Shown here one piece after another: positions 1,959 to 23,772 of a DNA stretch of 32,000 bases. The notes below the pieces were generated by a model. The model did not search any database and was not told the DNA's origin. It was given only the letters and a program-made list of their open reading frames with translations. Made by a program: the position numbers and the translations under genes. The stretch is from positions 870,001 through 902,000 of the forward strand of contig NZ_JAGIOS010000002.1 of assembly GCF_017876815.1 (NCBI RefSeq), in the 5' to 3' direction. The stretch comes from Sinorhizobium meliloti (GTDB taxonomy: Bacteria; Pseudomonadota; Alphaproteobacteria; Rhizobiales; Rhizobiaceae). Each line of letters begins with the position of its first letter. The first letter of the stretch is position 1.

Positions 1959-1983
1959 AACTCGAGCAGACCGGCTTTGTTCC
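1959..1983 (-). promoter_or_regulatory. EcfG/RpoE2-type general stress promoter motif (GGAAC-N16-aGTT) facing the SDR gene
   Basis: The minus strand reads GGAAC (plus 1983-1979), then a 16-nt spacer, then AGTT (plus 1962-1959). It lies about 75 nt upstream of the ATG at 1882. The first base of the -10 element is A rather than consensus C. Confidence 0.5.
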
Positions 1984-2014
1984 GGGCCATGGGAGCCTTG
2001 AGAAGACCGCCGAT

Positions 2015-2039
2015 GGAACTTCGCCTACGGCTCTACGTT
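2015..2039 (+). promoter_or_regulatory. EcfG/RpoE2-type general stress promoter motif (GGAAC-N16-CGTT, full consensus)
   Basis: GGAAC at 2015-2019, 16-nt spacer, CGTT at 2036-2039. It lies 33 nt upstream of the ATG at 2072 and is divergent from the motif at 1959-1983. Confidence 0.7.
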
Positions 2040-2071
2040 GCCCTCCTGACCCAAAAAAGCAGGAGAGTAAG

Positions 2072-2314
2072 ATGGAGAGAGCCAAGCGCCCATCGGCCGC
2101 CCCCCTTGATGTGAAGACTGTGGAACGGCCTGTCGAGAATGACAGCGATCTGCGCCCCGGGGCCGACAAACCCCCGATCGAACCGGACGATATCCCGAAC
2201 GCCAAGGCCGCGCGGGAGGCGGCGCGCCTGAAGAGGGATGAATACATCGTCAAGTCCGACCTGGAGGATGCCGACCAGCGCAATCCCCTACCCGACATGA
2301 AAGACCAGGAATGA
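2072..2314 (+). CDS. Small (80 aa) highly charged hydrophilic protein of unknown function, stress-protein-like
   Basis: AGGAGA RBS lies 5-6 nt upstream. Codons are almost all G/C-ending, matching the host bias. There is no hydrophobic segment. An EcfG-type motif lies directly upstream. Confidence 0.65.
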   Translation: MERAKRPSAAPLDVKTVERPVENDSDLRPGADKPPIEPDDIPNAKAAREAARLKRDEYIVKSDLEDADQRNPLPDMKDQE

Positions 2315-2369
2315 GTGCGATCCAGATGCCCAGTGATCGGTTCGCCTCGCAGCTTAATGGAGAATGACG

Positions 2370-2561: not shown

Positions 2562-2573
2562 CCGGCCGGCGCC

Positions 2574-2598
2574 GGAACATCTTCTGTAGCTCGCGGTT
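2574..2598 (+). promoter_or_regulatory. EcfG/RpoE2-type promoter motif (GGAAC-N16-gGTT)
   Basis: GGAAC at 2574-2578 and GGTT at 2595-2598. It lies 60 nt upstream of the ATG at 2658 and just after the stop at 2561. Confidence 0.55.
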
Positions 2599-2657
2599 CC
2601 ACACGCGGCGGGGGCGATGCTTGCGATGCGGTTGCCGACTGCAGATGGAGGAGCAGT

Positions 2658-3674: not shown

Positions 3675-3773
3675 GCGGCATCGGATCGTTGACTTTCGCC
3701 GCATTCGCAGTGAAGATCGCGACATACTAATATAAATTTTCACTTCCGCGATCGCGCGAAGGCAGAGTTGCGC

Positions 3774-5438
3774 ATGACGATCACGCAGCCGACCCGGAAT
3801 GACGCGCCTGCGCGCGCTCACCGCCCCGCCAGGGAATTTGCCGGGCTGGCGCGCGAGTGGCTGTTGCGCACCGATCCGGAACGCCTAATCTGCCTCGGTC
3901 GCGTGATCACGGCAGCGTTCGCTATCCTGGCGATCTATCTCGATCCCACTCGGCCGAACTCGCTTCTTTACGAGTCTCGCGTCGTTCTCGGCCTCTACCT
4001 TCTCCTCGCAATTGCGCTGGTGATCTTCCCGCTGCGGTACTCGTTCATCAGCCCGGTGCACCTTCTGATCCATGGTATCGACGCGGCGGTCGTCGGCTGG
4101 CTGACGTTTCTGACGAACGAACTGGCGAGCCCGTTCTTTTCTATACTTCCGTTCGTCATCCTGGCGATGACGATGCGCTGGGGTTTGAAGGGTGCCGCGC
4201 TCGGAGCACTGATCGCCCTTCTCGTCCAACTCGTGGTCGGCCTTCCCGACCTTCTCGACGGCGACGCGGAACTCAACGTCTTCATCATGCGGTCCATCTA
4301 TTTCGTGCTCGTCGCCGCGACGCTCGGCTATTTCGGAGCCTATCGCGAACGAAGCCGGCAGCGCCTTGCGCAACTCGCGCAGTGGCCGCCGGGCGCAATC
4401 GGCGAGGACCGGGTGTCGTGGCTGAGCATCCTGTTGGAACATGCTTCCGGCGTTCTTGGCGATGCGCATCTGCTCGTCATCTGGCGCGAGCAGGAATTCG
4501 AATCGGGGTGCGTAGCATACTGGGCCAACGGTACGCTCCAACTGGCCGACCTCAGGCACACCGACTTCTGGCGTCGTCACGATCCCGATCACCACGAGGG
4601 ACGCGGTCGCAGGAGCGGAGAGGCGCTGAATGGCCTCTTCGCCGATTTGCCCCAAATCCACGCAAACACCGAGCAATCGGATCTCAAGGTATTTTCCGCC
4701 GCCTTCTCCAGTGTCCGATATCGCGGCTGCGTTTTCGTGGTCAGCTTCGCCAACGCCGCCGACGACACGAAAGATCTGTCTCAGATCATCGCCACCCGCG
4801 TCGGGACGGAGCTCGAGCGTGTCGCTCTTATCCAGGCCGCCCGTTCGGAGGGGCGCATGCGCCTTGCCCGCGATCTGCATGACAGCGTGCTTCAGAACCT
4901 CACTGCGGCGCGTCTCAAACTGAAACTGATCGAAGAAGGAATCCCGGATGGCGCGAAGACGCAGCTGACCGAGGTTGGGTCGCTCATCCTCGAACAGCAG
5001 CAATGTGTCCGCAAATTCGTGGATGAGAACCGACCGGGAGAGGAAGGCAATCTCGCCAAGCTCGAGCAGGAACTTCCGGAATTTCTCGACCTGTTGAGAA
5101 CGCAGTGGAATTGCGCAATCGACGTGTCGCACGGACCCGCGCCGCTCGTGGTGCCCAGATGGATGCTTTACGAGATAATGCAATTGATCTCCGAAGCCGC
5201 GAGCAATGCGGTGCGCCACGGACGAGCGACGCTGTTGCGGATAGCTTTTGCCAGGACCGCGGAGCTCCTGAACCTGGAGATCACCGATAACGGCACGGGA
5301 ATACCGGGTGAACTCGAGATGAATCCCCTTTCGCTGTCGCAGCGGGTGGCGGAGCTTGGCGGAAAGCTGGCAGTCTGCCGGAATTCTCCTGGCCTCGGGC
5401 TCAAGATCGCGCTACCGCTGAAGCTGGAGGTCAGGTGA
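3774..5438 (+). CDS. Membrane sensor histidine kinase, HisKA_3 (NarX/DesK-like) class
   Basis: The N-terminal ~200 aa contain about 5-6 hydrophobic helices. H-box DLHDSVLQNLTAARLKL. HATPase motifs EAASNAVRHG, DNGTGIP and GLGLK. ATG at 3774; the track start at 3768 is a TTG two codons upstream. Confidence 0.9.
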   Translation: MTITQPTRNDAPARAHRPAREFAGLAREWLLRTDPERLICLGRVITAAFAILAIYLDPTRPNSLLYESRVVLGLYLLLAIALVIFPLRYSFISPVHLLIHGIDAAVVGWLTFLTNELASPFFSILPFVILAMTMRWGLKGAALGALIALLVQLVVGLPDLLDGDAELNVFIMRSIYFVLVAATLGYFGAYRERSRQRLAQLAQWPPGAIGEDRVSWLSILLEHASGVLGDAHLLVIWREQEFESGCVAYWANGTLQLADLRHTDFWRRHDPDHHEGRGRRSGEALNGLFADLPQIHANTEQSDLKVFSAAFSSVRYRGCVFVVSFANAADDTKDLSQIIATRVGTELERVALIQAARSEGRMRLARDLHDSVLQNLTAARLKLKLIEEGIPDGAKTQLTEVGSLILEQQQCVRKFVDENRPGEEGNLAKLEQELPEFLDLLRTQWNCAIDVSHGPAPLVVPRWMLYEIMQLISEAASNAVRHGRATLLRIAFARTAELLNLEITDNGTGIPGELEMNPLSLSQRVAELGGKLAVCRNSPGLGLKIALPLKLEVR

Positions 5439-6073: not shown

Positions 6074-6081
6074 GCCGCTCG

Positions 6082-6109: not shown

Positions 6110-6143
6110 AGCTGGCATGGAGCTTGCGATAAGTCGGTGCCGG

Positions 6144-6906: not shown

Positions 6907-9900
6907 ATGGCAGTCATCAACGGCACAGCCGGAAACAATGTCCTCATAGGCACTGATCTAGACGACGTGATTAGCGGGTTCGGCGGTGACGATTTCATTC
7001 AGGGACTTGGAGGCGCCGACGTGATCAACGGCGGCGCGGGCGTCGACACGGTCGACTATAGCGAAAAGACGACTTCCGTCGTAGTCACGTTAACGGGTGC
7101 GACCGCCGCGACGGTCTTCGTCAATGGCGTGGCCGACGACACTCTCAGCAACGTCGAGAACGTTTACGGGGGCTCCGGAAACGACACTATTACGGGCGAC
7201 GCGCAGAACAACCTATTCCGAGGCGGCGGCGGAAACGACGTCCTCGACGGCGGCGCCGGGAACGATACCGCCGACTATGCCGACAAGACGACTTCCGTCG
7301 TGGTCACCCTGATGGGGGCGACACCCGCCACCGTCTTCGTGAACGGTATCGCCGAGGACACAATCAGCAACTTCGAAAACGTCTATGGCGGGTCGGGCAA
7401 TGACATCCTGACCGGCGACGACCGAAGCAATATCCTGCGCGGCGAAGCAGGAAACGACATTCTCAATGGCGGCGCCGATGACGACTTGCTGTCCGGCGGC
7501 GCCGGCAACGACACGGCCGACGGCGGCACCGGGATCGATACCTTCGATCTCCGCGAAAAGACATCTTCAGTCGTCGTACAGCTCAGCGGCGCGAATGCGG
7601 CTACGGTCTTCGTCGGCGGCGTCGCCGAGGACACGATCCGCAATGTCGAGAACATCGTCGGCGGGACGGCGGACGACACGCTCAGCGGCGATGCGGCGGC
7701 AAACAAGCTCTCGGGTGCGCGCGGTAACGACTGGCTCAAGGGAGGAGGCGGCGCAGACACCCTTGACGGCGGCGAAGACAGCGACACCGCCGACTACAGC
7801 GACAAGGCGGCGGCGATCGCCGTGGCGCTGAACGGCGGCAATCCCGTTACCGTAACGGTCGGCGGCATTGCCGAGGATCTGATCGCGAAGATCGAGAACA
7901 TCGTGGGCGGCTCGGGCGGCGACACGATCATCGGCGATGCGGCTGCAAATGCGTTTCGAGGCGGCCTGGGTGCCGACGTGCTGGACGGCGGCGGCGGCAG
8001 TGACACCGCAGACTTCAGCGACAAGGTCCAATCCGTCGTGCTTGCCCTGAACGGTGCAGTCGACGCCATTGCGGCCGTCGGCGGAACGGCCGAGGATACG
8101 GTTCGCAACATCGAGAACATCACCGGCGGATCCGGCAACGACCAGTTTACCGGTGACGCCGCGGCGAATACCTTCCGCGGCGGCCTCGGCGCCGACGTGC
8201 TGGACGGAGGTGACGGCAGCGACACGGCGGACTACGGCGACAAGACGGTTTCGGTGGTAGTGACCCTGGCCGGCGCAAACCCGACCACCGCCTTCGTCGA
8301 CGGTATGGCCGAGGATTCTCTGCGCAACATCGAGAACATCATCGGCGGCTCGGGCAACGACGTGCTTGCCGGCGATGGGTTCCAGAACGTGCTGGACGGC
8401 GGTGCCGGCACCGACATGGCCGACTATTCTGCCTCCGCCAAGGGCATCGCGGTGATGCTCAACGGTGCCAACGATGCGAAGGTGATCGTTGGCAGTGCTG
8501 CGGAAGATACGCTGCGCAACATCGAAAATGTCACCGGCAGCGCCTTCGCGGATGTGATCACCGGCGACGCACAGGCGAACATTCTCCTGGGCGGCAGCGG
8601 TAGCGACATTCTCAAGGGAGACGGCGGGCAGGACGTCATCGACGGCGGTGCCGGGACCGATACCGCCGACTTCAGCGAAAAGACGGCAGCCGTCGTTCTG
8701 GCGCTGGCGGGTGCGGCGAACGCGATCGCGACGGTCGGTGGGCTGGCCGAGGATACGGTGCGCAACATCGAAAGCATCTTCGGCGGCATCGGCGCTGACG
8801 TGCTGACCGGCGACGGCAACAGCAATACGATCCGCGGCGGTGCGGGCGCCGACAGTCTGGATGGTGGCGCCGGTGTGGACACGGTCGATTATCGCGACAA
8901 AACCAAGTCCGTTGCCGTTACTCTCGATGGGGCCACCCCCGTGACCGTCAAGGTGGGCGGCGTAATCGAGGATACGATCCGCAATTTTGAGAACATCTCC
9001 GGCGGTTCCGCCGGCGACATGCTCACCGGAGACGGTCTGGCCAACGTCCTGGTCGGCAACGACGGCGCCGACACGCTGAGAGGGGGTCTCGGCAAAGACG
9101 TGCTGGACGGCGGCAATGGCGTCGACACCGCGGACTACCTGGAGAAAACCGATGCGATTTCGGTCACGCTGAACGGCACGGCGAGCGCGGCCGTTCTCGT
9201 CGGCGGCACAGCCGAAGACACCATCCGCGGTGTGGAAAACATACTCTCGGGGTCCGGTGCCGACACGCTTGTCGGTGACACCGCGAGCAATATGTTCCGG
9301 GGAGCTCTCGGCGCCGATTTCATAGACGGCGGCGCAGGCGTGGACACTGCCGATTACCGGGAGAAGACGGGGTCCGTCGAGGTGGCGCTCTCGGGAGCCA
9401 GCGACAGCTTCGTCTTCGTCGGCGGCGTCGTCGAAGACACCATCCGCAATATCGAGAATGTGTTCGGCGGCAAGGGCAACGATACGCTCACGGGCGACGG
9501 CCTCGCCAACACCCTCAACGGCAATGACGGCAAGGACCTCCTCACGGGCGGCGGCGGAGCGGACATTCTCGACGGCGGGGCGGCCTCCGATACGGCGAGC
9601 TACCGAGACAAGACCGCATCGGTCTCCGTTACACTCGACGGCGCCACCTATACGACCGTCACGGTCGGGGGCGCGGCCGAGGACACGATCCGCAACGTCG
9701 AGAACATCTGGGGCGGGACCGGCAACGACAGCCTGAGCGGCGACGCGAACGCGAACCTCCTTTCGGGCGGCGGCGGAAGCGACATCCTCTTCGGTGGTGC
9801 GGGTGCGGACATTTTCCAGTTCGACTTCGCTCTCGGTTCCACGAATGTCGACACGGTTCTGGATTTTACCGCCGGAGACAGGCTCTTCCTCTCGAAGAGC

Positions 9901-10125
9901 GTCTTCACCACGCTGAGTGGAGGGACGCTGGCGGTGACGCAGTTCTACGCGGCGGCCGATGCCACGGCGGCGCAGAACGCGAACCAGAAGATCATCTACG
10001 ACACGACGAGCGGTGCGCTCTACTACGACGCCGACGGTAGCCTTTCCGGTCACACGGCCGTGCAGTTCGCGGTGTTTTCGACGCATCCGAGCCTGACCGC
10101 GGGAGATTTCGTGCTCGTCGTGTGA
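6907..10125 (+). CDS. Large RTX/hemolysin-type calcium-binding repeat protein, a probable type I secretion substrate (adhesin or exoprotein)
   Basis: GGGAGGA RBS lies 7 nt upstream. There are dozens of GGxGxDxLx nonapeptides, e.g. GGAGNDTADY, GGSGNDILTGD and GGLGADVLDGG. There is no N-terminal signal peptide. The C-terminal ~100 aa (DTVLDFTAGDRLFLSKSVF...TAGDFVLVV) resemble serralysin-type RTX C-terminal secretion domains. Confidence 0.9.
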   Translation: MAVINGTAGNNVLIGTDLDDVISGFGGDDFIQGLGGADVINGGAGVDTVDYSEKTTSVVVTLTGATAATVFVNGVADDTLSNVENVYGGSGNDTITGDAQNNLFRGGGGNDVLDGGAGNDTADYADKTTSVVVTLMGATPATVFVNGIAEDTISNFENVYGGSGNDILTGDDRSNILRGEAGNDILNGGADDDLLSGGAGNDTADGGTGIDTFDLREKTSSVVVQLSGANAATVFVGGVAEDTIRNVENIVGGTADDTLSGDAAANKLSGARGNDWLKGGGGADTLDGGEDSDTADYSDKAAAIAVALNGGNPVTVTVGGIAEDLIAKIENIVGGSGGDTIIGDAAANAFRGGLGADVLDGGGGSDTADFSDKVQSVVLALNGAVDAIAAVGGTAEDTVRNIENITGGSGNDQFTGDAAANTFRGGLGADVLDGGDGSDTADYGDKTVSVVVTLAGANPTTAFVDGMAEDSLRNIENIIGGSGNDVLAGDGFQNVLDGGAGTDMADYSASAKGIAVMLNGANDAKVIVGSAAEDTLRNIENVTGSAFADVITGDAQANILLGGSGSDILKGDGGQDVIDGGAGTDTADFSEKTAAVVLALAGAANAIATVGGLAEDTVRNIESIFGGIGADVLTGDGNSNTIRGGAGADSLDGGAGVDTVDYRDKTKSVAVTLDGATPVTVKVGGVIEDTIRNFENISGGSAGDMLTGDGLANVLVGNDGADTLRGGLGKDVLDGGNGVDTADYLEKTDAISVTLNGTASAAVLVGGTAEDTIRGVENILSGSGADTLVGDTASNMFRGALGADFIDGGAGVDTADYREKTGSVEVALSGASDSFVFVGGVVEDTIRNIENVFGGKGNDTLTGDGLANTLNGNDGKDLLTGGGGADILDGGAASDTASYRDKTASVSVTLDGATYTTVTVGGAAEDTIRNVENIWGGTGNDSLSGDANANLLSGGGGSDILFGGAGADIFQFDFALGSTNVDTVLDFTAGDRLFLSKSVFTTLSGGTLAVTQFYAAADATAAQNANQKIIYDTTSGALYYDADGSLSGHTAVQFAVFSTHPSLTAGDFVLVV
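7054..9825 (+). repeat. In-frame tandem array of 12 diverged modules (73 aa / 219 bp in the shortest) inside the RTX gene
   Basis: Module consensus is DY-x-(D/E)KT-x-SVVVTL-x-GA-x4-V-x-VGG-x-AEDTIRNIENI-x-GGSG-x-D-x-LTGD followed by 2-4 RTX nonapeptides. Anchors seen: VDYSEKTTS, ADYADKTTS, FDLREKTSS, ADYSDKAAA, ADFSDKVQS, ADYGDKTVS, ADYSASAKG, ADFSEKTAA, VDYRDKTKS, ADYLEKTDA, ADYREKTGS and ASYRDKTAS. The first two anchors are 73 aa apart. The third is 90 aa further on because of extra nonapeptides. Confidence 0.85.
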
Positions 10126-10139: not shown

Positions 10140-10164
10140 GGAACACCTGCCCAGGCTCCGTGTT
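10140..10164 (+). promoter_or_regulatory. EcfG-type motif (GGAAC-N16-tGTT) between the RTX stop and the terminator-like hairpin
   Basis: GGAAC at 10140-10144 and TGTT at 10161-10164. It is oriented toward the Zn-ADH gene (start 10240), but a hairpin plus T-tract (10177-10217) lies in between. Confidence 0.35.
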
Positions 10165-10176
10165 TGGAGGAACGTG

Positions 10177-12139: not shown

Positions 12140-12963
12140 GACTCCGTATCCTCAGTTTCTGCGCTGATGTCGGAGTCGCCGCCGACATCGGCGAAACCCC
12201 ATTCCTTCACATCGATTTCGTAGTCGGGACGCGAGTACATCCGGCCGCGACAGATCTTCGTCAGGGGCAGTGGAAGATCTCTCTGCGCCGCGAGCCTGCT
12301 CAAGAGCTCGTCCATCAGCCAGAGGGGGACCTTGTCGCGCTCGGAGGGATAGATCCATCGGAAGTTCAGCAGGTGGATGAGCAGGACCTCCCAGTGCGCT
12401 TCCATGTATCCGAGCAATCTTGCCCAATCGATTCGGTCATGTGCCTTCAGGATCAGGTGCGCGACGTCGGCGCCGTCGTAGCGGTGGCGAAGCTGGATGA
12501 AGGCCTTGGACCAGACGAGTTCCGTCGGCGCGACGATTGCACAGGTGGAGGCACCGATCTCTGTCAACAGAGCATTGGCGAACCAGGCGTCGGTGACCAT
12601 CATGGTTCCGTTCGGCGAGGAGAAGATGACGTCGAAGAAGGATTTCCCCTTGAAGACCTTGCCCAGCCATCGATCGTCCTCGATTTCGACTGCGTATCCG
12701 AGCGCCTTGAAATGATTGAGGATGCGGGTGTAATCGCCCGGCTTGCAGAAGACGTCGAGATCTTTCGTCGGCCTCGAAATGCCGGTATGGGCGCTGACGG
12801 CGAAGGTGCCCGCGATCAGGAACGGAATTTGCGACCGGCCCAGTTCGGCAATCGCCTCGGCAACGAATGCTTCGGCCTCCTCGTCGACGAGACGCGGCAG
12901 CGCGAGCGGCTCGGACGGGTGTTCCGAAGGGGAGCGCGGGGGGATTGACGTCATGCTGGTCAT
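12136..12963 (-). CDS. Pol-beta-superfamily nucleotidyltransferase-fold protein (uncharacterised, NTP_transf_5-like) with an acidic C-terminal tail
   Basis: FLIAGTFAVSAHTGISRPTKDLDVF fits the minimal nucleotidyltransferase pattern hG[GS]-x9-13-D-h-D-h. Start chosen at 12963 (MTSMTSIPP; alternative 12954) because it lies downstream of the EcfG-type motif at 13012-12988. The track start at 13122 is upstream of that motif. Confidence 0.6.
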   Translation of the reverse strand: MTSMTSIPPRSPSEHPSEPLALPRLVDEEAEAFVAEAIAELGRSQIPFLIAGTFAVSAHTGISRPTKDLDVFCKPGDYTRILNHFKALGYAVEIEDDRWLGKVFKGKSFFDVIFSSPNGTMMVTDAWFANALLTEIGASTCAIVAPTELVWSKAFIQLRHRYDGADVAHLILKAHDRIDWARLLGYMEAHWEVLLIHLLNFRWIYPSERDKVPLWLMDELLSRLAAQRDLPLPLTKICRGRMYSRPDYEIDVKEWGFADVGGDSDISAETEDTES

Positions 12964-12987
12964 CCAAATGAACGAGACTTCCCTGAC

Positions 12988-13012
12988 AACACGCCAGTCT
13001 TTCGGAAGTTCC
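12988..13012 (-). promoter_or_regulatory. EcfG/RpoE2-type promoter motif (GGAAC-N16-tGTT) for the nucleotidyltransferase/phosphoesterase pair
   Basis: The minus strand reads GGAAC (plus 13012-13008), a 16-nt spacer, then TGTT (plus 12991-12988). It lies about 25 nt upstream of the ATG at 12963. Confidence 0.5.
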
Positions 13013-13102: not shown

Positions 13103-13128
13103 GGAACCGCTGGCCACGTCATGGCGTT
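13103..13128 (+). promoter_or_regulatory. EcfG/RpoE2-type promoter motif (GGAAC-N17-CGTT)
   Basis: GGAAC at 13103-13107 and CGTT at 13125-13128. It is divergent from the 13012 motif. It lies 118 nt upstream of the ATG at 13246, which implies a long leader. Confidence 0.5.
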
Positions 13129-13245
13129 TGTCTGGCAGCTATCGCATGAGCGCCCGGAGCGGAAGCGAAGGGCAGAATCATTAGGAAAATCAAAGCGCTA
13201 CAGCGACTGCGCGCGTCTATTGATGCGCCGCTGAGGGAGGAGCAT

Positions 13246-13981: not shown

Positions 13982-14027
13982 CTCGCATCCTCCAGCGCTG
14001 TACCGAAACCGGCAGCAGAGCGGATGC

Positions 14028-14052
14028 AACCGGGGAAGGGCGATAAAGTTCC
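14028..14052 (-). promoter_or_regulatory. EcfG/RpoE2-type promoter motif (GGAAC-N16-gGTT) for the 48-aa gene and the DUF1328 gene
   Basis: The minus strand reads GGAAC (plus 14052-14048), a 16-nt spacer, then GGTT (plus 14031-14028). Confidence 0.6.
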
Positions 14053-14114: not shown

Positions 14115-14139
14115 GGAACCAAATCTGGCCCGGACGGTT
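14115..14139 (+). promoter_or_regulatory. EcfG/RpoE2-type promoter motif (GGAAC-N16-gGTT) for the PepSY and YflT-like genes
   Basis: GGAAC at 14115-14119 and GGTT at 14136-14139. It lies 38 nt upstream of the ATG at 14177 and is divergent from the 14052 motif. Confidence 0.6.
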
Positions 14140-14176
14140 TGGTTGGCCGAATGAGGCTCCCGAGAGAGGAAAGGCC

Positions 14177-15261: not shown

Positions 15262-17238
15262 ATGATTGATTTTTCCCGTGCCCGCGAACGGATGATCACG
15301 TCGCATCTCTCGCGACGGGGGATAAGGGACAGACATGTCGTGGAGGCGATGGGGGTCGTCCCGCGGGAGGCATTCGTCGATCCCGGCTTCGAGGAATTCG
15401 CCTATGAAGATTCGGCCCTTTCGATCAGCCATGGCCAGACCATCTCGCAGCCCTATATTGTGGCGCTGATGATCGAACGCGCCGAAGTCCAGCCGGGCGA
15501 TACGGTGCTCGAGATCGGGACCGGATCCGGTTACGCGGCGGCGGTGCTCAGCCGGATCGCGGCATATGTCTATACGATCGAGCGCCATGCCGGCCTCGCC
15601 GAGGTTGCCGAGAGACGATTTGCCGAGCTCCGTTACGGGAATATCGATGTGCGTGTCGGCGACGGCACGGCCGGCTGGCCCGAGGCAGGACCCTTCGACG
15701 CCATACTGGTCGCCGCCGGAGGTCCCGAGATACCGCATGCGCTGAAGGAGCAGCTCGACCTCGGCGGCCATCTCGTCATACCCGTCGGCCCCCCTGAGGA
15801 GCAGCGCCTGATGAAGGTCACGCGGGTCAACGCCACGACATTCGAGGAGCAGGACCTCGGCGGGGTCAGGTTCGTGCCGCTCGTCGGCGAATACGGCTGG
15901 CATGAGGAGCGGGCTCAGTCCCGGGCAAGGCTCAGACCTGCGCCCACGCTGCCCGAGTTGGTTGCAGAGGCGGCCGAGCCGCTGCCCGATCTCGGCGATC
16001 CTGCATTCGGGCTGCTTTTCGATCGCTTTGCCGGGCGGCGGATCGTGCTGCTCGGAGAGGCGAGCCACGGCACGTCGGAATTCTACCGCGCCCGCGCAGC
16101 CATCACGCGCCGCCTGATCGAGGAACACGGGTTCACGATCGTGGCGGTCGAGGCGGATTGGCCGGATGCGGCGGCAGTTGACCGCTATGTCCGACATCGA
16201 AGGCAAGGCATTCGCCTCGACGCGCCGTTCCAGCGGTTCCCGACCTGGATGTGGCGCAACCGCGAAGTGATGGATTTCGTCGAGTGGATGCGCGAACATA
16301 ACGGCCGCAGGAGCTTGCCTGACCGGGCCGGCTTCTACGGTCTCGACATCTATAATATGCGCGGCTCCATTTCCTCGGTTCTCCGGTATCTCGATGAGAC
16401 CGACCCCGAGGCCGCCGCGGTCGCCCGCGAGCGCTACGGTTGCCTGACCCCCTGGCAGAACGAGCCGTCGACCTATGGCCGTGCGGCCATGACCGCGGGC
16501 TTCCGCAAATGCGAAGAGGCCGTCGTCAGGCAATGCCGCGAACTCCTGGAGAAGCAGCTCGAAGCCGGGCGCGACAGCGGCGACGAGCTTCTCGACGCGG
16601 TGCAGAACGCGCGCCTCGTCGCCTCGGCCGAGCGGTACTACCGCATCATGTATTATGCCGGGGCCGACTCCTGGAACATGCGCGACACCCATATGTTCGA
16701 AACGCTCGAGCATCTGTTGAATGCACGCGGCGCTCGCTCGAAGGCGGTCGTGTGGGCGCACAATTCCCATATCGGCGATGCCCGCCATACCGATATGGGC
16801 ACGGCCCGCGAGGAGTTGAACATCGGTCAGCTCTGCCGCGAGCGGTTTGGCGATCAGGCAGCGCTGATCGGCTTCGGCACGCATGGCGGCCATGTGGCTG
16901 CCGCAAGCGATTGGGACGGCGATATGGAGGTGAAGCCGATCCGGCCGTCGCTCGAAGGAAGCTACGAGCGCGTGATGCACGACTCAGGGGTAGGGTGCTT
17001 CCTCATCGACTTCGCGCGCCACGCGCGTCTGCGCGACGGTCTCCTCAAGCCGTTGCTCGAGCGCTTCATCGGGGTGATCTACCGGCCGGACACGGAACGC
17101 TTCAGCCATTATGCCCACGCTTCGCTGCCCCGGCAGTTCGACGCCTTCGTCTGGTTCGATCAGACGACGCCGGTCGAACCGCTCGGCGCGCAACACATAA
17201 AGGCGGGCGTGCCGGACACGTTCCCGTTCGGCCTCTGA
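15262..17238 (+). CDS. pcm: Fusion protein: protein-L-isoaspartate O-methyltransferase (Pcm) domain plus an erythromycin-esterase-family (EreA/ChaN-like) domain
   Basis: The N-terminal ~210 aa carry GQTISQPYIVALMIE, VLEIGTGSGYAAAVL and GDGTAGWPEAGPFDAILVAAG (Pcm SAM-MTase motifs). The C-terminal ~430 aa carry LLGEASHGTSEFY and FTIVAVEADWPDA, which are erythromycin-esterase family signatures. AAGGAAGG RBS lies before the ATG at 15262. Confidence 0.85.
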   Translation: MIDFSRARERMITSHLSRRGIRDRHVVEAMGVVPREAFVDPGFEEFAYEDSALSISHGQTISQPYIVALMIERAEVQPGDTVLEIGTGSGYAAAVLSRIAAYVYTIERHAGLAEVAERRFAELRYGNIDVRVGDGTAGWPEAGPFDAILVAAGGPEIPHALKEQLDLGGHLVIPVGPPEEQRLMKVTRVNATTFEEQDLGGVRFVPLVGEYGWHEERAQSRARLRPAPTLPELVAEAAEPLPDLGDPAFGLLFDRFAGRRIVLLGEASHGTSEFYRARAAITRRLIEEHGFTIVAVEADWPDAAAVDRYVRHRRQGIRLDAPFQRFPTWMWRNREVMDFVEWMREHNGRRSLPDRAGFYGLDIYNMRGSISSVLRYLDETDPEAAAVARERYGCLTPWQNEPSTYGRAAMTAGFRKCEEAVVRQCRELLEKQLEAGRDSGDELLDAVQNARLVASAERYYRIMYYAGADSWNMRDTHMFETLEHLLNARGARSKAVVWAHNSHIGDARHTDMGTAREELNIGQLCRERFGDQAALIGFGTHGGHVAAASDWDGDMEVKPIRPSLEGSYERVMHDSGVGCFLIDFARHARLRDGLLKPLLERFIGVIYRPDTERFSHYAHASLPRQFDAFVWFDQTTPVEPLGAQHIKAGVPDTFPFGL

Positions 17239-17715: not shown

Positions 17716-17835
17716 GTGAACCTTCCGACGATTGTCGAGACCGAACCGCGAAACCTGCGGTTTTCCGGTCTCCAATCACCCAGGCGTCGAATTGTTCCGA
17801 AGCACGCAGGTGACGCGACCACGCGCCGTTCTGCA

Positions 17836-17860
17836 GGAACATTTCGGGAAGCCGCCGGTT
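17836..17860 (+). promoter_or_regulatory. EcfG/RpoE2-type promoter motif (GGAAC-N16-gGTT) for the DUF892 gene
   Basis: GGAAC at 17836-17840 and GGTT at 17857-17860. It lies 31 nt upstream of the ATG at 17891. Confidence 0.65.
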
Positions 17861-17890
17861 GGAGGACGCGCGAAAAGAAAGGAATATCCG

Positions 17891-18397: not shown

Positions 18398-18432
18398 AGC
18401 GGCTTCAGCCGGACCTGCGGGACCTGCCGAAA

Positions 18433-18462: not shown

Positions 18463-18470
18463 TGTGGTTC

Positions 18471-19220
18471 TCAGGACGGTTCCTGCTTGTCCCGCATCAC
18501 GACGTCCAGTTCGGCAAGCAGCGGAAGATGATCCGAAGCGCTTCGCGCCAGGGTGCTGCCGTGCACCCTGCAGGAAGCCACTTCTATGCCTTTGCCGATC
18601 AGCACGTGATCGATGCGCAGCAGCGGCAATCGCGATGGAAAGGTCGGCCGAGGCTTGGCGCCGGTCAGCAGTTGCGCGTCGCTGAGCTGTCGGGCCAGGA
18701 GCCTGTAGGCGGTCGAACGCCCCGTGGCGTTGAGATCGCCTGCCAGGACCACGTGAGCGTCTCCCTGGGCCATTCCTCCGAGCCAGCCGGGGCCTAGAAG
18801 GGCGGTCGCCTGGCGCAGGCGCTCGGCGCCGCGCAATCCGAGATGCGTCACGATCACCTGAAGCTTGACTCCGGCGACGTCGATCTCCACCCAGAGCGCG
18901 CCCCGCGGCTCGCCGGACGAGGGGAGGGGTGCTGCCTTGATCAGCCGCATAGGCAAGGCCGTCAGAACGGCGTCTCCGTATTTCTCGTCCTCCAGGTGGA
19001 GAGCCGGATGGAACTCGGCTTCCATGTTGAGATGCGTGGCGATCATATGGGCCTGGTCTATTCCGCCGGTGCGGGCGCGGCCAACGTCGACTTCCTGCAA
19101 TGCGATGACGTCGGGCTGGCATTCGGCGATGACCGCGGCGATACGCGCGGGATCGAGCCTGCGGTCGGTGCCGAAGCAGCTGTGAACGTTGTAGGTGAGG
19201 AACCGTATCCGCTGTCGCAT
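18471..19220 (-). CDS. Endonuclease/exonuclease/phosphatase (EEP) family protein, YbhP-like
   Basis: Motifs FLTYNVH, DVIALQEVD, VVLAGDLN and SDHLPLLAEL (EEP catalytic motifs). Start at 19220 (MRQRIRF) has a GAAGG RBS. The track start at 19310 would overlap the divergent gene. Confidence 0.85.
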   Translation of the reverse strand: MRQRIRFLTYNVHSCFGTDRRLDPARIAAVIAECQPDVIALQEVDVGRARTGGIDQAHMIATHLNMEAEFHPALHLEDEKYGDAVLTALPMRLIKAAPLPSSGEPRGALWVEIDVAGVKLQVIVTHLGLRGAERLRQATALLGPGWLGGMAQGDAHVVLAGDLNATGRSTAYRLLARQLSDAQLLTGAKPRPTFPSRLPLLRIDHVLIGKGIEVASCRVHGSTLARSASDHLPLLAELDVVMRDKQEPS

Positions 19221-19227
19221 CGCCTTC

Positions 19228-19253
19228 GGAACACGCAGCACCTGCTTTTCGTT
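19228..19253 (+). promoter_or_regulatory. EcfG/RpoE2-type promoter motif (GGAAC-N17-CGTT) for the YbhN-like gene
   Basis: GGAAC at 19228-19232 and CGTT at 19250-19253. It lies 26 nt upstream of the ATG at 19279 in the 58-bp divergent intergenic region. Confidence 0.6.
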
Positions 19254-19278
19254 CCGGTGGGTGCGCAAGGGAGGGCCG

Positions 19279-20220
19279 ATGTCCAGAAAAATTCTAGCGA
19301 GACTGTTCATCGCTGCCGGTATCTGCGTGGCGGGCTGGTTGATCTATCGCACCCTCAGCCAACATAGCTTTCATGAAATCGCTGGTTCGATCATGCGGAT
19401 TCCGGCCCGGAATCTCTTTGTGGGCATCGGTTTCGTCTTTCTTTCCTATTTCTGCCTGACCCTCTTCGACACCCTCGCTATCCGCTATGTCGGGCGGAAG
19501 CTCGCCTATCCGCAAATCGCCATCGCCTCCTTCACCAGCCTTTCGATCGGCCACAATGTCGGCGGCGCGGCCTTGAGCAGCGGTGCCGTCCGCTACCGGT
19601 TCTACTCGCGCTGGGGGTTGAGCGCCGAAGAGGTGGCGAAGGTCATTCTGTTCTGCGGCGTCACCGTCGGCCTCGGCCTTGTCGCATTGGCCGGGCTTTG
19701 TTTTCTGATCGTGCCTTCGGGCGCCGCGCGGCTTACCGGATTTTCCACGACCGGCGCTTTCCTGCTCGGCACTGCCTGCATAGCGGCCGCGGCCGGTTAC
19801 GTCCTGCTCGCTTATTTTCTGCGGGGCTCGGTTCGCATCTTTCGCTGGACTTTCGAAATGCCCTCGGTGGGGATTGCCGCCTTGCAGGTCGTCGTCGGAG
19901 TCGCCAACTTCCTCTGCGTCAGCGCAGCGTTGCATCAGCTGCTCAGCGCCTTCGAGGAGGTGAGTTTCATCGACACGGCCATGGCCTATGTCGGGGCCGG
20001 CGTGACCGCGATCGTCAGCCATGTCCCCGGCGGAATCGGCGTACTCGAGGCGACAATCGCATTTCTGCTTGGCAGTTCGGCGAGCCTGGGCGCTCTGATC
20101 GCCTTTCGGGCGATCTATTTCTTCCTGCCGCTGCCGCTCGGCTTGATCTCGCTTTCGGTCGCTGAGTTCGTCGCCCGTCGGGATGAGGAAAAAAACCTGG
20201 TGAGCAAGGCGAAGAGCTGA
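19279..20220 (+). CDS. Lysylphosphatidylglycerol-synthase-TM-region family (UPF0104, YbhN-like) integral membrane protein
   Basis: There are about 8 hydrophobic helices. IGFVFLSYFCLTLFDTLAIRYVGRKL...GGAALSSGAVRYRFYSRWG is typical of the family. AAGGGAGGG RBS lies before the ATG at 19279. Confidence 0.8.
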   Translation: MSRKILARLFIAAGICVAGWLIYRTLSQHSFHEIAGSIMRIPARNLFVGIGFVFLSYFCLTLFDTLAIRYVGRKLAYPQIAIASFTSLSIGHNVGGAALSSGAVRYRFYSRWGLSAEEVAKVILFCGVTVGLGLVALAGLCFLIVPSGAARLTGFSTTGAFLLGTACIAAAAGYVLLAYFLRGSVRIFRWTFEMPSVGIAALQVVVGVANFLCVSAALHQLLSAFEEVSFIDTAMAYVGAGVTAIVSHVPGGIGVLEATIAFLLGSSASLGALIAFRAIYFFLPLPLGLISLSVAEFVARRDEEKNLVSKAKS

Positions 20221-21767
20221 CCGATCCAGCGCCTCACGAGCTTGTGCGTGCGATAAAAGGGTCGGATCGGCCTTTGCGGATCGACGATCTCCGTGCCCCA
20301 GACGAGACTGGTCGCGCCGTCGTCATCGATTCCGTCGAAGGCGCGTATGCCGCGCCGGCGCGTGTTCAACCTGTCCAAGGCGGCGACGAGCGAGTTCGTT
20401 TCCCTCAGTGCCTTTTCAACGGCGTCCGCTTCGATGTCGAGATGTTCTGCGATCAGGCCGTTGCGGACTCTGGCAATGGCGGCGCGCTGTCCTTCGTTGG
20501 CGGCTTCTACGGCGACGTCGCATTCGGTGTCGAGGCTTGCCGAGCGGTGGTTGAAGTTCGACGAGCCGACGCGGAAAAAACGATCGTCGATCGCGACCAC
20601 CTTGGAATGGATAATCACCTCCTGCTCGGATCCGTCGGCGGCGGGAACGACCGGGTAGGCGACCCTGAGCCTGCCGTATCGGTCGGCCCGCTTGAGCCGC
20701 CGAACGAGACGGTCGCGGTTTCCTCCCATGACGATGCGTTCCAACAGCCCATGCGAGCTGCGGGTAGTGATGACCACCACTTCCGGGCCGTCCGGCTCCT
20801 GCAGCCGGTCGCAGAGCAACTGCCCAATTCTTCCCGATGCGAAATACTGGTTTTCGATGTAGATGTGACTTTGCGCACTGCGCAAGGCATCGAGAGTCAG
20901 CCGCAGTGCCTCCTGCCGGCCGCGCCTTTTGCCGGAGCCCGGCTCCGTGCGGGCGATTGCGACCGGGCAATCCTCGAGCACCGGCACCGTGCCGTTCGGC
21001 CATGCAAGCGCCCTCGCGGGCGGCGCCTCGATTTCCTCGCCCGTAGAGGCTTTCCAGCGGGATCTGCAGAGATCGCCGATGGCGCGGCTCGCCTCGCCTT
21101 CGAGCGCCACCTGGATGTCATGCACCGGATCATAGGGTTTTCCGTCCGGATCGCGCCGCAACTCGTTCTCGGCCGCGTGCTCCGGCGTGTCCCAGCGGCG
21201 CGCCGTCAGATCGATGCCCCCGGCAAAGGCGATGCTGTCGTCGATGCAGACGAGCTTCTGGTGATGCGATCCGCGCAGCGCCCGGTGGCTCGCGAAGCGA
21301 AGTTCGATCTGCGGATGGGCCGCCCATTGCTGCCTGCGAAAGAGCCTGAGCGACTTTCCCGAGTAGATCGGTCCCATCGCCCAGACGAGAATGCGGATCT
21401 TCAGTTTCGGCTTTTGCGCAGCGAGGCGCTCGAGCCTGCTGCCGAGCGATTCCGCCTGGGGGCAGTCCGGTCTGAGCTTGATGCGCGGATCGAAGTCCCA
21501 TCCGGTGATCCAGATCTGCTCTTCCGCCTGATCGAACGTACTATCGAGACAAGCATAATAGGCGGCTGCGTCCACCAGGAAGGACAGATGCCGTGCGGGC
21601 GCGCTGCGCCAGACATTCTCCGCCTCCTTGATTATCGGCCGGCTTGTCCGACGCCATCGGCCGGCCGGATTTCCGGTGAACGCGCTTTTCCAGTCCAAGC
21701 TTCCTATCCCGTACGTGGCGACTGGAAATGAATCCCTTTCAACCGTGATTTGTTCCAGGAGCAGCAT
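20115..21767 (-). CDS. Phospholipase D / cardiolipin-synthase-like (two HKD motifs) protein
   Basis: HKD motif 1 is SHHQKLVCIDDSIAFAGGIDL. HKD motif 2 is IHSKVVAIDDRFFRVGSSNFNHRS. The stop is firm. The start is uncertain: 21767 (MLLLEQ) is chosen as the first ATG before the conserved core, with 21827 as the alternative. The 702-aa track ORF would run into the divergent TPP-enzyme gene. Confidence 0.8.
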   Translation of the reverse strand: MLLLEQITVERDSFPVATYGIGSLDWKSAFTGNPAGRWRRTSRPIIKEAENVWRSAPARHLSFLVDAAAYYACLDSTFDQAEEQIWITGWDFDPRIKLRPDCPQAESLGSRLERLAAQKPKLKIRILVWAMGPIYSGKSLRLFRRQQWAAHPQIELRFASHRALRGSHHQKLVCIDDSIAFAGGIDLTARRWDTPEHAAENELRRDPDGKPYDPVHDIQVALEGEASRAIGDLCRSRWKASTGEEIEAPPARALAWPNGTVPVLEDCPVAIARTEPGSGKRRGRQEALRLTLDALRSAQSHIYIENQYFASGRIGQLLCDRLQEPDGPEVVVITTRSSHGLLERIVMGGNRDRLVRRLKRADRYGRLRVAYPVVPAADGSEQEVIIHSKVVAIDDRFFRVGSSNFNHRSASLDTECDVAVEAANEGQRAAIARVRNGLIAEHLDIEADAVEKALRETNSLVAALDRLNTRRRGIRAFDGIDDDGATSLVWGTEIVDPQRPIRPFYRTHKLVRRWIGQLFALLTRFFSSSRRATNSATESEIKPSGSGRKK

Positions 21768-21911
21768 TGTTGCCGAACAAAGCCTTCGCGGCGACCAGGT
21801 CGGCGGAGCTTTGCCATGGCGGAACATTTCCCGGCAGGACGAGATTAGAAGGTTCCGAGCCTTCAATCGAACCCGCCAATCACCCATACGCTGACCGGAG
21901 GAGGGGCAAAT

Positions 21912-23729
21912 ATGCCGAACACTTCCGACATCCTCATCGACACGCTTATCGAATGGAAGGTCGATGTCGTCTTCGGCCTGCCCGGAGACGGCATCAACGG
22001 CATCATGGAGGCGCTCAGGAGGCGGCAGGATCGCATCCGGTTCGTTTCCGTGCGCCACGAGCAATCGGCCGCCTTCATGGCATGCGCCTATGCCAAATTC
22101 ACCGGCAGACTTGGCGTCTGCCTCGCCACATCGGGCCCGGGCGGCACAAATCTGCTGACCGGCCTCTACGATGCGAAGCTGGACCAGATGCCGGTGCTCG
22201 CGATCACCGGCATGCAGTATCACGACCTGATCGAGACGTTCTCACAGCAGGACGTCGATCTCACCCGCGTCTTCGAAAACGTCGCCGTCTACAACGCGCA
22301 GGTGAACGACGCAGCCCACATGGAAAACCTCGCAAACCTTGCCTGCCGGTCGGCGCTCTCCAAGCGCGGCGTGGCGCATCTTTCGATCGCCAACGACGTG
22401 CAGGAGCGGATGGCAGATGGCGGGCGGTCCCGCCGCAACCGGCCGGGGCACATGCCAAGCCGGTATTTCGCCGGCAAGCTCGTGCCCCTCGAAAGCGATC
22501 TTTCGAGAGCGGCGGATCTCCTGAATGCGGGCAGGAAGGTGGCAATTCTTGCGGGGCGCGGCGCACTCGAGGCGAAGGAGGCTCTGCGCGAGACGGCGGA
22601 ACTGCTGGGCGCGCCGGTGGCGAAGGCTCTTCTCGGCAAGGCGGTGCTGCCCGACGACGACCCGCTGACCACCGGCGGCATCGGCATACTCGGCACCGCG
22701 CCGTCGCAGGAGATCATGCAGCAATGCGACACGCTGCTCATCATCGGCTCGACCTTCCCCTATATCGAATATTATCCCAGGCCGAACACGGCAGCCGGAA
22801 TCCAGATCGACCATGACCCGCAGCGCATCGGTCTGCGCTACCCCGTCGAGGTCGGGCTGGTCGGCGAGGCAGGCGAGACCCTCCGCATGCTCAACAAGCG
22901 GCTCAAACGCAAGCAGGACAGGTCGTTCCTCGAGCGGGCGCAAGAGCAGACGCGAAACTGGCGCCGGGAGCTGCGGGCGATGGAAGGCGACAGGAGTTCT
23001 CCCCTGAAACCGCAGGCGGCGGTCGCGGCTTTCGGCCGGCGCATCGCGAAGAAGGGTATCGTCGTCACCGACTCCGGACAGAACACCGAGCTTGCGGCCC
23101 GTCATCTCGATCTCGGTGCGGACCACATGTTCGCGGTCTCCGGCGCCCTCGCCTCGATGGCCTCGGGCCTGCCCTATGCTATCGCGGCGGGCATCGCGAT
23201 GCCGGACCGCCCGGTCTATGCGGTCGTCGGCGACGGCGGCTTCGCGATGCAGCTCGGCGAATTTGCGACAGCCGTCGGATACCGGCTTCCTTTGAAGCTC
23301 CTGGTGATCCGAAACGACATGCTGAACCAGATCGCCTGGGAGCAGATGATGTTTCTCGGCAATCCGCAATTCGCCTGCGAATTGCCGCCGATCGATTTCG
23401 CCGCCGCGGCGGAGGCCATGGGCGGCCGGGGCTTCACCGTCCGGTCCTTCGGCGAACTGGACGGGATCATGGATCAGGCCTTCGCCGTGGATGGGCCGGT
23501 GGTCATCCAGGCGCTGGTCGACCGCTACGAGCCGCTGATGCCGCCGAAAATGCCGGCGGACTACGCCCGGAACTTCCGTGCCGCGCTTCCGGAAACGCCG
23601 GGGCACGAGAAGATCGAGGAAATCCTCAGGAATTCCTCCGTCGGCAGGAAGGTAACCGACGAGGAGCCGCAGCCGCCGCATGAGGCGGCGCCGGACGAGA
23701 ACACCGGCGAATTGCCGGGAATTCCGTAG
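21912..23729 (+). CDS. Thiamine-pyrophosphate enzyme, pyruvate oxidase / pyruvate dehydrogenase (quinone) PoxB-like
   Basis: N-terminal GLPGDGINGIMEAL and ATSGPGGTNLLTGL. TPP-binding VVGDGGFAMQLGEF...LKLLVIRNDMLN. GGAGGAGGGG RBS. An acidic and Pro-rich C-terminal tail is present. Confidence 0.85.
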   Translation: MPNTSDILIDTLIEWKVDVVFGLPGDGINGIMEALRRRQDRIRFVSVRHEQSAAFMACAYAKFTGRLGVCLATSGPGGTNLLTGLYDAKLDQMPVLAITGMQYHDLIETFSQQDVDLTRVFENVAVYNAQVNDAAHMENLANLACRSALSKRGVAHLSIANDVQERMADGGRSRRNRPGHMPSRYFAGKLVPLESDLSRAADLLNAGRKVAILAGRGALEAKEALRETAELLGAPVAKALLGKAVLPDDDPLTTGGIGILGTAPSQEIMQQCDTLLIIGSTFPYIEYYPRPNTAAGIQIDHDPQRIGLRYPVEVGLVGEAGETLRMLNKRLKRKQDRSFLERAQEQTRNWRRELRAMEGDRSSPLKPQAAVAAFGRRIAKKGIVVTDSGQNTELAARHLDLGADHMFAVSGALASMASGLPYAIAAGIAMPDRPVYAVVGDGGFAMQLGEFATAVGYRLPLKLLVIRNDMLNQIAWEQMMFLGNPQFACELPPIDFAAAAEAMGGRGFTVRSFGELDGIMDQAFAVDGPVVIQALVDRYEPLMPPKMPADYARNFRAALPETPGHEKIEEILRNSSVGRKVTDEEPQPPHEAAPDENTGELPGIP

Positions 23730-23747
23730 AGCGCATTCCCGCCGACG

Positions 23748-23772
23748 GGAACAAAGCATGCCTTCTTCGGTT
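23748..23772 (+). promoter_or_regulatory. EcfG/RpoE2-type promoter motif (GGAAC-N16-gGTT) for the ASRT-family / lactone-oxidase pair
   Basis: GGAAC at 23748-23752 and GGTT at 23769-23772. It lies 34 nt upstream of the ATG at 23806. Confidence 0.6.

Follow-up and report, generated by a model that had tools for sequence, protein, structure and literature searches.

RpoE2-type promoters in a 22-kb block of the Sinorhizobium meliloti chromid pSymB, including a candidate two-way element

Introduction

When one short promoter-like motif recurs upstream of gene after gene, as it does in a stretch of Sinorhizobium meliloti DNA, the question arises of whether these motifs are promoters of a single regulon and, if they are, what the stretch adds to what is already known about that regulon. 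The stretch considered here (hereafter the window) is the whole segment of 32,000 nucleotides (nt) at positions 870,001 to 902,000 of contig NZ_JAGIOS010000002.1 (assembly GCF_017876815.1), and coordinates are window positions unless strain 1021 is stated. Over bases 1-25000, pSymB of several S. meliloti strains has the same sequence (100% identity), and the window corresponds approximately to 81.3-113.3 kb of pSymB in strain 1021, that is, to genes SMb20072-SMb20102. An initial annotation, made from the letters alone, had listed eleven sites of the form GGAAC-N16/17-GTT, had linked the genes downstream of them to one regulon and had called the region a hot spot of the general stress response. 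Our analysis indicates that these motifs are very probably promoters read by RNA polymerase with RpoE2 (the EcfG-type general stress sigma factor, group ECF15), and that they belong to a block of RpoE2-type promoters which spans SMb20073-SMb20097 on chromid pSymB.

The RpoE2 general stress regulon of S. meliloti was reportedly described by Sauviac and co-workers in 2007. In the mechanism drawn from the literature (including PMC3738161 and PMC6180224), two anti-sigma factors of the NepR type, RsiA1 and RsiA2, would keep hold of RpoE2 in unstressed cells. Under heat or salt stress, on starvation or in stationary phase, RsiB1 and RsiB2, which are PhyR-type proteins, would become phosphorylated and would then bind the anti-sigma factors, with the consequent release of RpoE2. 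Once free, RpoE2 would direct the polymerase to a -35 element (GGAAC) and a -10 element ((c)GTT) 16-17 nt apart, with transcription expected to start about 8 nt past the -10 hexamer. According to the RpoE2 literature, the genes for these regulators (rpoE2, rsiA1/2 and rsiB1/2) are on the S. meliloti chromosome, outside the window, and GGAAC-N16/17-cGTT is established as the RpoE2 promoter in S. meliloti itself.

The evidence used in this work has two sources. Five transcription start sites and the RpoE2-dependent induction of all units are published, and the non-random occurrence and spacing of the motif, its restriction to 5' regions and the cross-species conservation of its core elements were computed here. 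On this basis, we infer that the seven listed sites which are absent from the published start-site table, as well as three new candidates, also fire. What had been presented as a discovery is correct, but it is largely in the literature already (PMC3616915, PMC6180224), since the regulon, several of the promoters and the induction of all these genes have been published. Two small points go beyond the literature that we compared, namely a motif in front of SMb20091 and a two-way element at 19228-19255.

Results

Occurrence, spacing and location of the motif

All eleven sites were found at the positions and on the strands given for them in the initial annotation, and all of them are present in strain 1021. 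Nine have the form GGAAC-N16-xGTT, and the other two (13103-13128 and 19228-19253) read GGAAC-N17-CGTT. When GGAAC-Nx-GTT was counted on both strands for x from 12 to 21, the numbers obtained were 0, 1, 0, 2, 1, 11, 3, 3, 1 and 2, with a sharp peak at x=17 (11 matches, against 0-3 at each other distance). The N16-17 forms together gave 12 matches, compared with 1.46 +/- 1.22 (maximum 5) in dinucleotide-preserving shuffles, a background that agrees with the one to two chance matches estimated beforehand.

A weight matrix trained on 53 published RpoE2 promoters, all from outside the window (training minimum 11.7, median 17.5), assigned to the eleven sites scores of 12.7-19.5. With a threshold of at least 14.5, the window has 13 matrix matches versus 0.8 +/- 0.9 in shuffles, and an unrelated 49-kb stretch of pSymB, used as control (strain 1021, 1.62-1.67 Mb), has one, together with two pattern matches (chance level). 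About 15 of the 19 matches scoring at least 11.7 are located in 5' regulatory regions, and such regions account for some 11% of the sequence (binomial P ~1e-11; annotated intergenic DNA amounts to 3243 of the 32000 bases). Each of the eleven sites lies upstream of a gene and faces it, with 24-117 nt between the -10 element and the start codon, close to the 25-120 nt first reported. Additionally, a repeat search found no repeat family overlapping the promoter sites, and an origin of the sites as copies of a mobile or repeat element was rejected for that reason.

Published start sites and induction by RpoE2

Table S19 of Schlüter 2013 (PMC3616915) comprises RpoE2-dependent genes with an RNA-seq start site behind an RpoE2 promoter, and it is the source of all the mapped start sites given below; each promoter is set out there as a heptamer, a spacer of 13-14 nt and a hexamer. 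Five of its promoters are in the window (those of SMb20073, SMb20074, SMb20083, SMb20085 and SMb20094), with the start site 7-8 nt past the -10 hexamer. The initial annotation had predicted a start 6-10 nt past the motif, and this is what is observed at the four of these sites that it contained (SMb20073, SMb20074, SMb20083 and SMb20085).

Induction values were taken from Schlüter Table S18 and from Lang 2018 (PMC6180224, Data Set S1), both of which report RpoE2-overexpression microarrays. All eleven downstream units are induced upon RpoE2 overexpression, with log2 values from 0.75 (SMb20080) to 4.6 (SMb20074) (PMC3616915, PMC6180224), and the motif-less genes SMb20077/78, SMb20088 and SMb20099-102 are not in these two RpoE2-induced lists. 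Taken together, the matrix scores, the five start sites and the induction of all eleven units bear out the assignment of the motif to the EcfG/RpoE2 consensus, and the fact that all downstream units are RpoE2-induced sustains the view that one regulon links these genes.

The description of the region as a general-stress hot spot is also appropriate. Genome-wide, 108 RpoE2 transcription units were counted by Sallet 2013 (PMC3738161), which for 6.7 Mb gives about 0.5 units expected per 32 kb, against about 15 promoters in 22 kb here. Twelve of these promoters are arranged in six back-to-back divergent pairs (SMb20073/74, SMb20082/83, SMb20085/86, SMb20090/91, SMb20092/93 and SMb20094/95); the three pairs first reported are present, and the other three are candidate pairs that were found in this work.

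Conservation in Sinorhizobium medicae

The window was compared with the syntenic region of S. medicae WSM419 (about 82% overall identity). Ten of the eleven listed sites, as well as all four extra promoters (those of SMb20090, SMb20092, SMb20094 and SMb20095, described below), keep both core elements, with spacers and flanks that diverge. At the twelve sites whose spacers have the same length in both species, the core is identical in 96 of 96 positions, versus 166 of 208 in the spacer (Fisher P = 2.7e-8). This pattern points to purifying selection on the core elements relative to the spacer, with the SMb20076 site as the exception.

The individual promoters and candidate promoters

Pfam and NCBIfam agree with most of the gene assignments initially made (YghA-type SDR, second SDR, Zn-dependent alcohol dehydrogenase, metallophosphoesterase, DUF1328, PepSY, YflT, DUF892, EEP, MprF-flippase-like protein, PLD, ASRT and lactone oxidase). 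The nucleotidyltransferase label of SMb20082 did not fare as well, its sole basis being a weak NTP_transf_5 match under the Pfam cut-off. In the descriptions that follow, log2 values are those of Lang, with the published range in brackets where there is one, and the mapped start sites are given in strain 1021 coordinates, followed by the approximate window position.

The first promoter of the block is that of SMb20073, a YghA-type SDR (1958..1983, minus strand), which reads GGAACAA-N13-GAGTTA, has a score of 19.5 and keeps its core in S. medicae, where the spacer has one more base; its start site is at 83259 (~1950) and the gene is induced with a log2 of 2.3 (2.3-2.8). Divergent from it is the promoter of SMb20074-SMb20075, which encode proteins of 80 and 63 residues (2015..2040, plus strand, score 15.9, kept in S. 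medicae), with its start site at 83357 (~2048) and log2 values of 4.6 and 3.7 for the two genes. The candidate in front of SMb20076 (an SDR, log2 3.0), at 2574..2599 on the plus strand, is the weakest of the eleven; it scores 14.6 and is not in Table S19. No terminator-like site was found between SMb20075 and SMb20076, and the transcript from the SMb20074 promoter probably continues into SMb20076. Given the absence of such a terminator and the loss of the SMb20076 site in S. medicae, the gene may be read from the SMb20074 promoter, and its own site may be redundant with this read-through. As the site ends in GTTCC, it can also be read on the minus strand (2600-2575, score 10.7); this reading was rejected as a promoter, being low in score, antisense and unconserved.

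A further candidate precedes SMb20080, the Zn-dependent alcohol dehydrogenase (10140..10165, plus strand, score 15.0, log2 0.75), and keeps its core in S. medicae despite an insertion of about 50 nt immediately upstream. Next to this gene, SMb20079 (6907-10125) encodes a calcium-binding RTX-like protein of 1072 residues, with about nine diverged 219-nt repeats (7017-9779) and a nested 27-nt periodicity; its RpoE2 induction is weak (log2 0.94) and it is without an upstream motif.

The candidate of SMb20082-SMb20081 (nucleotidyltransferase-like protein and metallophosphoesterase; 12987..13012, minus strand, score 15.0) has the same sequence in S. medicae, where the upstream DNA has diverged, and the two genes have log2 values of 4.0 (4.0-4.6) and 2.2 (2.2-3.1), respectively. 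The site is inside the 5' end of SMb20082 as annotated by PGAP (start 13038) and upstream of a conserved ATG at 12954, the start first assigned in strain 1021. A start site reported for this gene, SMb_TSS0200 (~13093, minus strand; strain 1021 pSymB 94399), lies about 11 nt past a GGTTCC that is the reverse complement of the SMb20083 -35, with no GGAAC -35 before it on the minus strand; it might reflect reverse use of the SMb20083 -35 as a -10, or an unrelated promoter. The promoter of SMb20083 itself (79-residue protein; 13103..13129, plus strand, score 13.3) has a long leader, with the start site at 94443 (~13137) classed as a cis-encoded mRNA leader by Schlüter 2013 (PMC3616915). Its core is kept in S. 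medicae, with five spacer changes, and the gene has a log2 of 3.6 (3.5-3.6).

The next divergent pair is formed by the promoter of SMb20085-SMb20084 (48-residue protein and DUF1328; 14027..14052, minus strand, score 16.5) and the candidate of SMb20086-SMb20087 (PepSY and YflT-like proteins; 14115..14140, plus strand, score 18.7). The former has its start site at 95314 (~14019), a conserved core in S. medicae with 11 of 17 spacer positions identical, and log2 values of 2.9 (2.9-3.6) for SMb20085 and 1.9 (1.9-2.9) for SMb20084. The latter is kept in S. medicae and faces genes with log2 values of 1.3 (1.3-1.8) and 0.97; in PepSY-YflT operons elsewhere, the motif is found 25-48 nt upstream in four of four cases (Agrobacterium fabrum, two Rhizobium strains and Bradyrhizobium japonicum). 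In the locus of Rhizobium sp. SL42, the PepSY promoter has as its divergent partner an EcfG motif that faces a catalase gene (275-301 on the minus strand, 434-459 on the plus strand).

At the end of the block is the candidate of SMb20096-SMb20097, encoding an ASRT-family protein and a sugar-1,4-lactone oxidase (23748..23773, plus strand, score 18.6), whose core is kept in S. medicae beside a 20-nt insertion; the log2 values are 0.87 and 1.3 (1.3-3.1), respectively. Two ASRT-family paralogues, SMb20096 and SMb20098, flank the lactone oxidase gene (23806-25945); the RpoE2 motif is found before SMb20096 only, and SMb20098 appears in the Lang data solely for the comparison of Rm1021 with CL150.

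Further promoters, candidates and rejected matches

The initial list, whose eleven sites are real, was not complete. The published promoter of SMb20094, a PLD family gene (21730..21756, minus strand; GGAACAA-N14-GGATTC, score 16.7, identical in S. medicae), has its start site at 103018 (~21723) and a log2 of 2.5 (2.5-3.7), and was missed because its -10 reads GATT, outside the GTT pattern. Paired with it is an intergenic candidate for SMb20095, a TPP enzyme of pyruvate-oxidase-like type (21821..21847, plus strand; GGAACAT-N14-AGATTA, score 14.4, log2 0.90), which keeps both core elements in S. medicae with six spacer changes. A second intergenic candidate faces SMb20090-SMb20089, which encode proteins of 43 and 107 residues (17773..17798, minus strand; GGAACAA-N13-TGATTG, score 16.2, log2 0.84 and 0.63, respectively), and has kept its core with five spacer changes. 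For neither of these two candidates was a start site found in the portions of the published data consulted. The fourth addition, facing SMb20092, is part of the two-way element described below.

Exact-pattern scans returned five matches beyond the initial list (16673-16697 on the plus strand, 22906-22929 on the minus, 778-804 on the plus, and 2600-2576 and 19255-19230 on the minus). The last two are opposite-strand readings of listed sites with GTTCC ends, and that at 778-804, an N18-CGTT form, is within coding sequence. The match at 16673..16698 (plus strand, score 15.2), inside SMb20088, is not considered a promoter, as its core elements are codons, for Trp-Asn (TGGAAC) and Met-Phe (ATGTTC); it is kept in S. 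medicae, and SMb20088 is in neither RpoE2-induced list. SMb20088 (15262-17238) encodes a fusion of a protein-L-isoaspartate O-methyltransferase and an erythromycin-esterase-like domain, with 658 residues, in the middle of the stress block. The matches at 22906-22929 (minus strand), 24593 (plus strand) and 26170 (plus strand) were also rejected as promoters, since they lie within genes and have no conserved counterpart in S. medicae.

The cluster of promoters runs past the window, with three motifs at 73.9-75.2 kb of strain 1021 pSymB, 6-7.5 kb upstream (3896-3921 and 4452-4476 on the plus strand and 5197-5221 on the minus strand of the upstream locus). The first belongs to SMb20065, whose RpoE2 promoter is published (Schlüter 2013, PMC3616915, Table S19); the second motif precedes SMb20066, which is RpoE2-induced (log2 2.3), and the third is near SMb20067.

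A motif in front of SMb20091

The listed candidate of SMb20091 (DUF892, ferritin-like; 17836..17861, plus strand, score 17.3, core kept in S. medicae) concerns a gene with a particular place in the literature. In Lang 2018 (PMC6180224), no gene other than SMb20091 was induced by RpoE5, the second sigma factor of group ECF15 (log2 0.78, versus 1.36 with RpoE2); the gene was stated there to have no RpoE2 motif, and indirect control was proposed. The stretch inspected in that work (PMC6180224, Data Set S2) is the 60 nt upstream of SMb_TSS0208, ending at window position 17780. We find a perfect GGAACAT-N13-CGGTTG 30 nt before the SMb20091 ATG, that is, 55 nt downstream of SMb_TSS0208 (~17781).

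The same arrangement is widespread among orthologues of this gene. In DUF892 loci of other species, a matrix match was present within 260 nt upstream in 65 of 71 alphaproteobacterial cases versus 1 of 9 non-alphaproteobacterial ones, against a background of 0.08 per 270 nt; these motifs are mostly 25-40 nt from the start codon, and their spacers are unrelated. The motif of SMb20091 and its conservation among orthologues make direct control by RpoE2 the more likely reading, and the site at 17836..17861 is probably an RpoE5 promoter as well.

A candidate two-way element between SMb20092 and SMb20093

The second point that goes beyond the literature compared is a 28-bp sequence at 19228-19255, GGAACAC-N14-TCGTTCC, whose ends are palindromic. 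Because the complement of GGAAC is GTTCC, the element reads both ways, and it matches the RpoE2 promoter on both strands (score 12.7 on the plus and 15.1 on the minus). The plus reading (19228..19255) is the promoter listed for SMb20093 (YbhN-like, log2 1.25), and the minus reading (19255-19229, GGAACGA-N14-GTGTTC) is a candidate promoter of SMb20092 (EEP family, log2 1.48, published range 1.48-1.94); the two genes flank the element divergently, each faced by one of the readings, and neither is in Table S19. If both readings are used, the -35 of each promoter would be the -10 of the other.

The divergent EEP/YbhN-like gene pairs compared came from the genus Sinorhizobium (S. medicae, S. mexicanum, S. 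fredii and Sinorhizobium sp. B11), from three strains of Rhizobium, R. leguminosarum among them, and from seven metagenome loci. A 27-28-bp GGAAC(A/C)C-N13/14-TCGTTCC is present in 15 of 15 divergent pairs, its ends being invariant and its interior and flanks variable. Where a YbhN-like gene has no EEP gene beside it, it carries instead a one-way motif ending in GTTG or GTTT, and GTTCC ends are found in just 3 of the 53 published RpoE2 promoters. In R. leguminosarum, the EEP/YbhN-like intergenic region (locus 620-700) has extra GTTCCCCCGGGGAAC-type palindromes beside the two-way element.

The element is predicted to function in both directions. Transcription on the minus strand would then start on or just before an ATG at 19220, and the SMb20092 mRNA would be leaderless; this ATG is 48 nt downstream of the start annotated by PGAP (19268). 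A comparable situation is found in SMb20094, whose annotated start is at 21767, versus a TTG at 21698 proposed by Schlüter et al. The annotated starts of SMb20082, SMb20092 and SMb20094 lie upstream of predicted or published RpoE2 promoters, and the genes as annotated are probably too long.

SMb20092-94 (18471-21767) form a lipid-related trio (EEP, MprF-flippase-like and PLD proteins), all of them RpoE2-induced. The PLD protein matched the NCBIfam cardiolipin synthase models far under their cut-offs. The trio is reminiscent of the ybhP-clsB-ybhN genes of E. coli, a possible link.

Discussion

Weighing the promoter reading

Several observations weigh against taking all these motifs as RpoE2 promoters. 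Seven of the eleven listed sites are absent from Table S19 (Sallet Table S10 and Sauviac 2007 being outside the comparison). In the portions of the published data consulted, the sole reported start sites that we found for SMb20091 and SMb20082 lie upstream of the motif, and not downstream. The published expression evidence used here comes from overexpression, and not from an rpoE2 mutant, and SMb20080, SMb20096, SMb20095 and SMb20089/90 are induced less than 2-fold, which could be indirect or due to read-through. Furthermore, overexpression of RpoE6 and RpoE5 slightly raises SMb20074 and SMb20091, respectively, which means that sigma specificity is not absolute, and the SMb20076 site has lost both core elements in S. 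medicae.

The likeliest alternative is that only the start-site-mapped promoters work, the other sites being weak, decaying or silent, and their genes responding indirectly (via RpoH2, RpoE5 or two-component systems) or by read-through. It is supported by the literature on the RpoE2 cascade, which includes rpoH2, rpoE5 and exsFG, by the several units with less than 2-fold induction, by SMb20076, which is readable from SMb20074 (no terminator found) and has an unconserved site of its own, and by the proposal of Lang et al. (PMC6180224) that SMb20091 is under indirect control. Nevertheless, we regard this alternative as unlikely, given that in S. medicae both core elements survive, in spite of changed spacers, at nine of the ten sites that are new or have no mapped start, that the motifs before the DUF892, PepSY and EEP/YbhN genes recur in different genera at a constant distance from the start codon, and that SMb20082 is induced 16-fold with no other RpoE2-type motif. 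It is somewhat less probable still that some of the motifs are mainly read by another ECF15 or related sigma factor, such as RpoE5 or RpoE6. SMb20091 is indeed the single gene induced by RpoE5, and SMb20074 and SMb20065 respond slightly to RpoE6, but the RpoE2 effect is larger each time (log2 1.36 versus 0.78, and 4.6 versus 0.9), and the fit of the sites to the RpoE2 matrix is as good as that of typical published RpoE2 promoters. Finally, chance occurrence of a short degenerate motif in GC-rich DNA, to which the coding, unconserved matches at 22906-22929, 24593 and 26170 and the codon-explained one at 16673 are ascribed, has a negligible probability and is refuted for the set as a whole by the 12 matches against 1.46 expected, the peak at one spacing, the concentration of 15 of 19 matrix matches in about 11% of the sequence, the published start sites, the induction and the core conservation across species. 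Promoters read by RpoE2 thus remain the reading that we adopt for the block.

Comparison with known stress regulons

The closest system is the S. meliloti RpoE2 regulon as published (PMC3616915, PMC3738161, PMC6180224), which shares with the block the organism, the replicon, the genes and the consensus, and in which five of these promoters are listed. The differences are the seven listed sites and three candidates that go beyond Table S19, and the presence of a motif before SMb20091, contrary to Lang 2018. The clustering into divergent pairs and the two-way element are not discussed in the RpoE2 literature compared.

The same type of promoter (GGAAC-N16/17-CGTT) is known from the EcfG/PhyR/NepR regulons of other Alphaproteobacteria (SigT in Caulobacter; EcfG in Methylobacterium, Bradyrhizobium, Sphingomonas and Rhizobium etli), and we found motifs upstream of orthologues in Mesorhizobium, Rhizobium, Agrobacterium, Bradyrhizobium, Bosea, Brucella, Phyllobacterium and Nitrobacter. 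The products that the block would supply under stress are small hydrophilic proteins, DUF892 and DUF1328 proteins, those of the PepSY-YflT operon, SDR and alcohol dehydrogenase oxidoreductases, and the EEP/MprF-flippase-like/PLD trio; shared among EcfG regulons are small hydrophilic proteins, DUF892, PepSY-YflT, catalase and dehydrogenases. What distinguishes the present case from other EcfG regulons is that many units lie close together, within about 22 kb of one chromid, instead of being scattered over the genome. The RpoS regulon of E. coli and the SigB regulon of Bacillus have an analogous cargo (DUF892 corresponding to the YciF family, YflT-domain proteins and YghA/YdaD-type SDRs), but their sigma families and promoter logic are unrelated, and the likeness is functional only.

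Bidirectional promoters that arise from the sequence symmetry of sigma-70 -10 elements are said to have been described by Warman and co-workers in 2021. As in that case, one short segment, with a promoter on both strands, is predicted here to drive divergent transcription. Unlike the sigma-70 case, the symmetry here relates two elements of an ECF-type promoter, the -35 (GGAAC) and the -10 (GTTCC), and the two promoters are predicted from sequence to overlap fully within 27-28 bp. We found no mention of a bidirectional promoter with EcfG in the literature compared, and the topic is not discussed in the text of Schlüter 2013 (PMC3616915).

Significance

As regards the regulon as a whole, these results matter little, since several definitions of the S. 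meliloti RpoE2 regulon already exist and the pSymB block is in published tables. What they do provide is a full map of the promoters in a block that ranks among the densest for RpoE2, with some 15 promoters, twelve of them in six divergent pairs, within 22 kb, together with improved start codons for SMb20082, SMb20092 and SMb20094.

Beyond this map, we put forward a joint proposal, whose chances of being right as a whole we judge to be about even. Rhizobiaceae would exploit a partly self-complementary EcfG consensus, the element at 19228-19255 consisting of two fully overlapping, opposite RpoE2 promoters that would act as one mutually exclusive stress switch for the EEP-phosphatase and MprF-flippase-like genes, beside the PLD gene; SMb20092 would be leaderless; and, against the published statement, EcfG would control SMb20091 directly, as a deeply conserved target. 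The correction concerning SMb20091 bears on what RpoE5 recognises. If the two-way element works as proposed, a compact promoter for both directions can arise from the consensus of an ECF sigma factor, which could be of interest for ECF-based synthetic circuits in S. meliloti.

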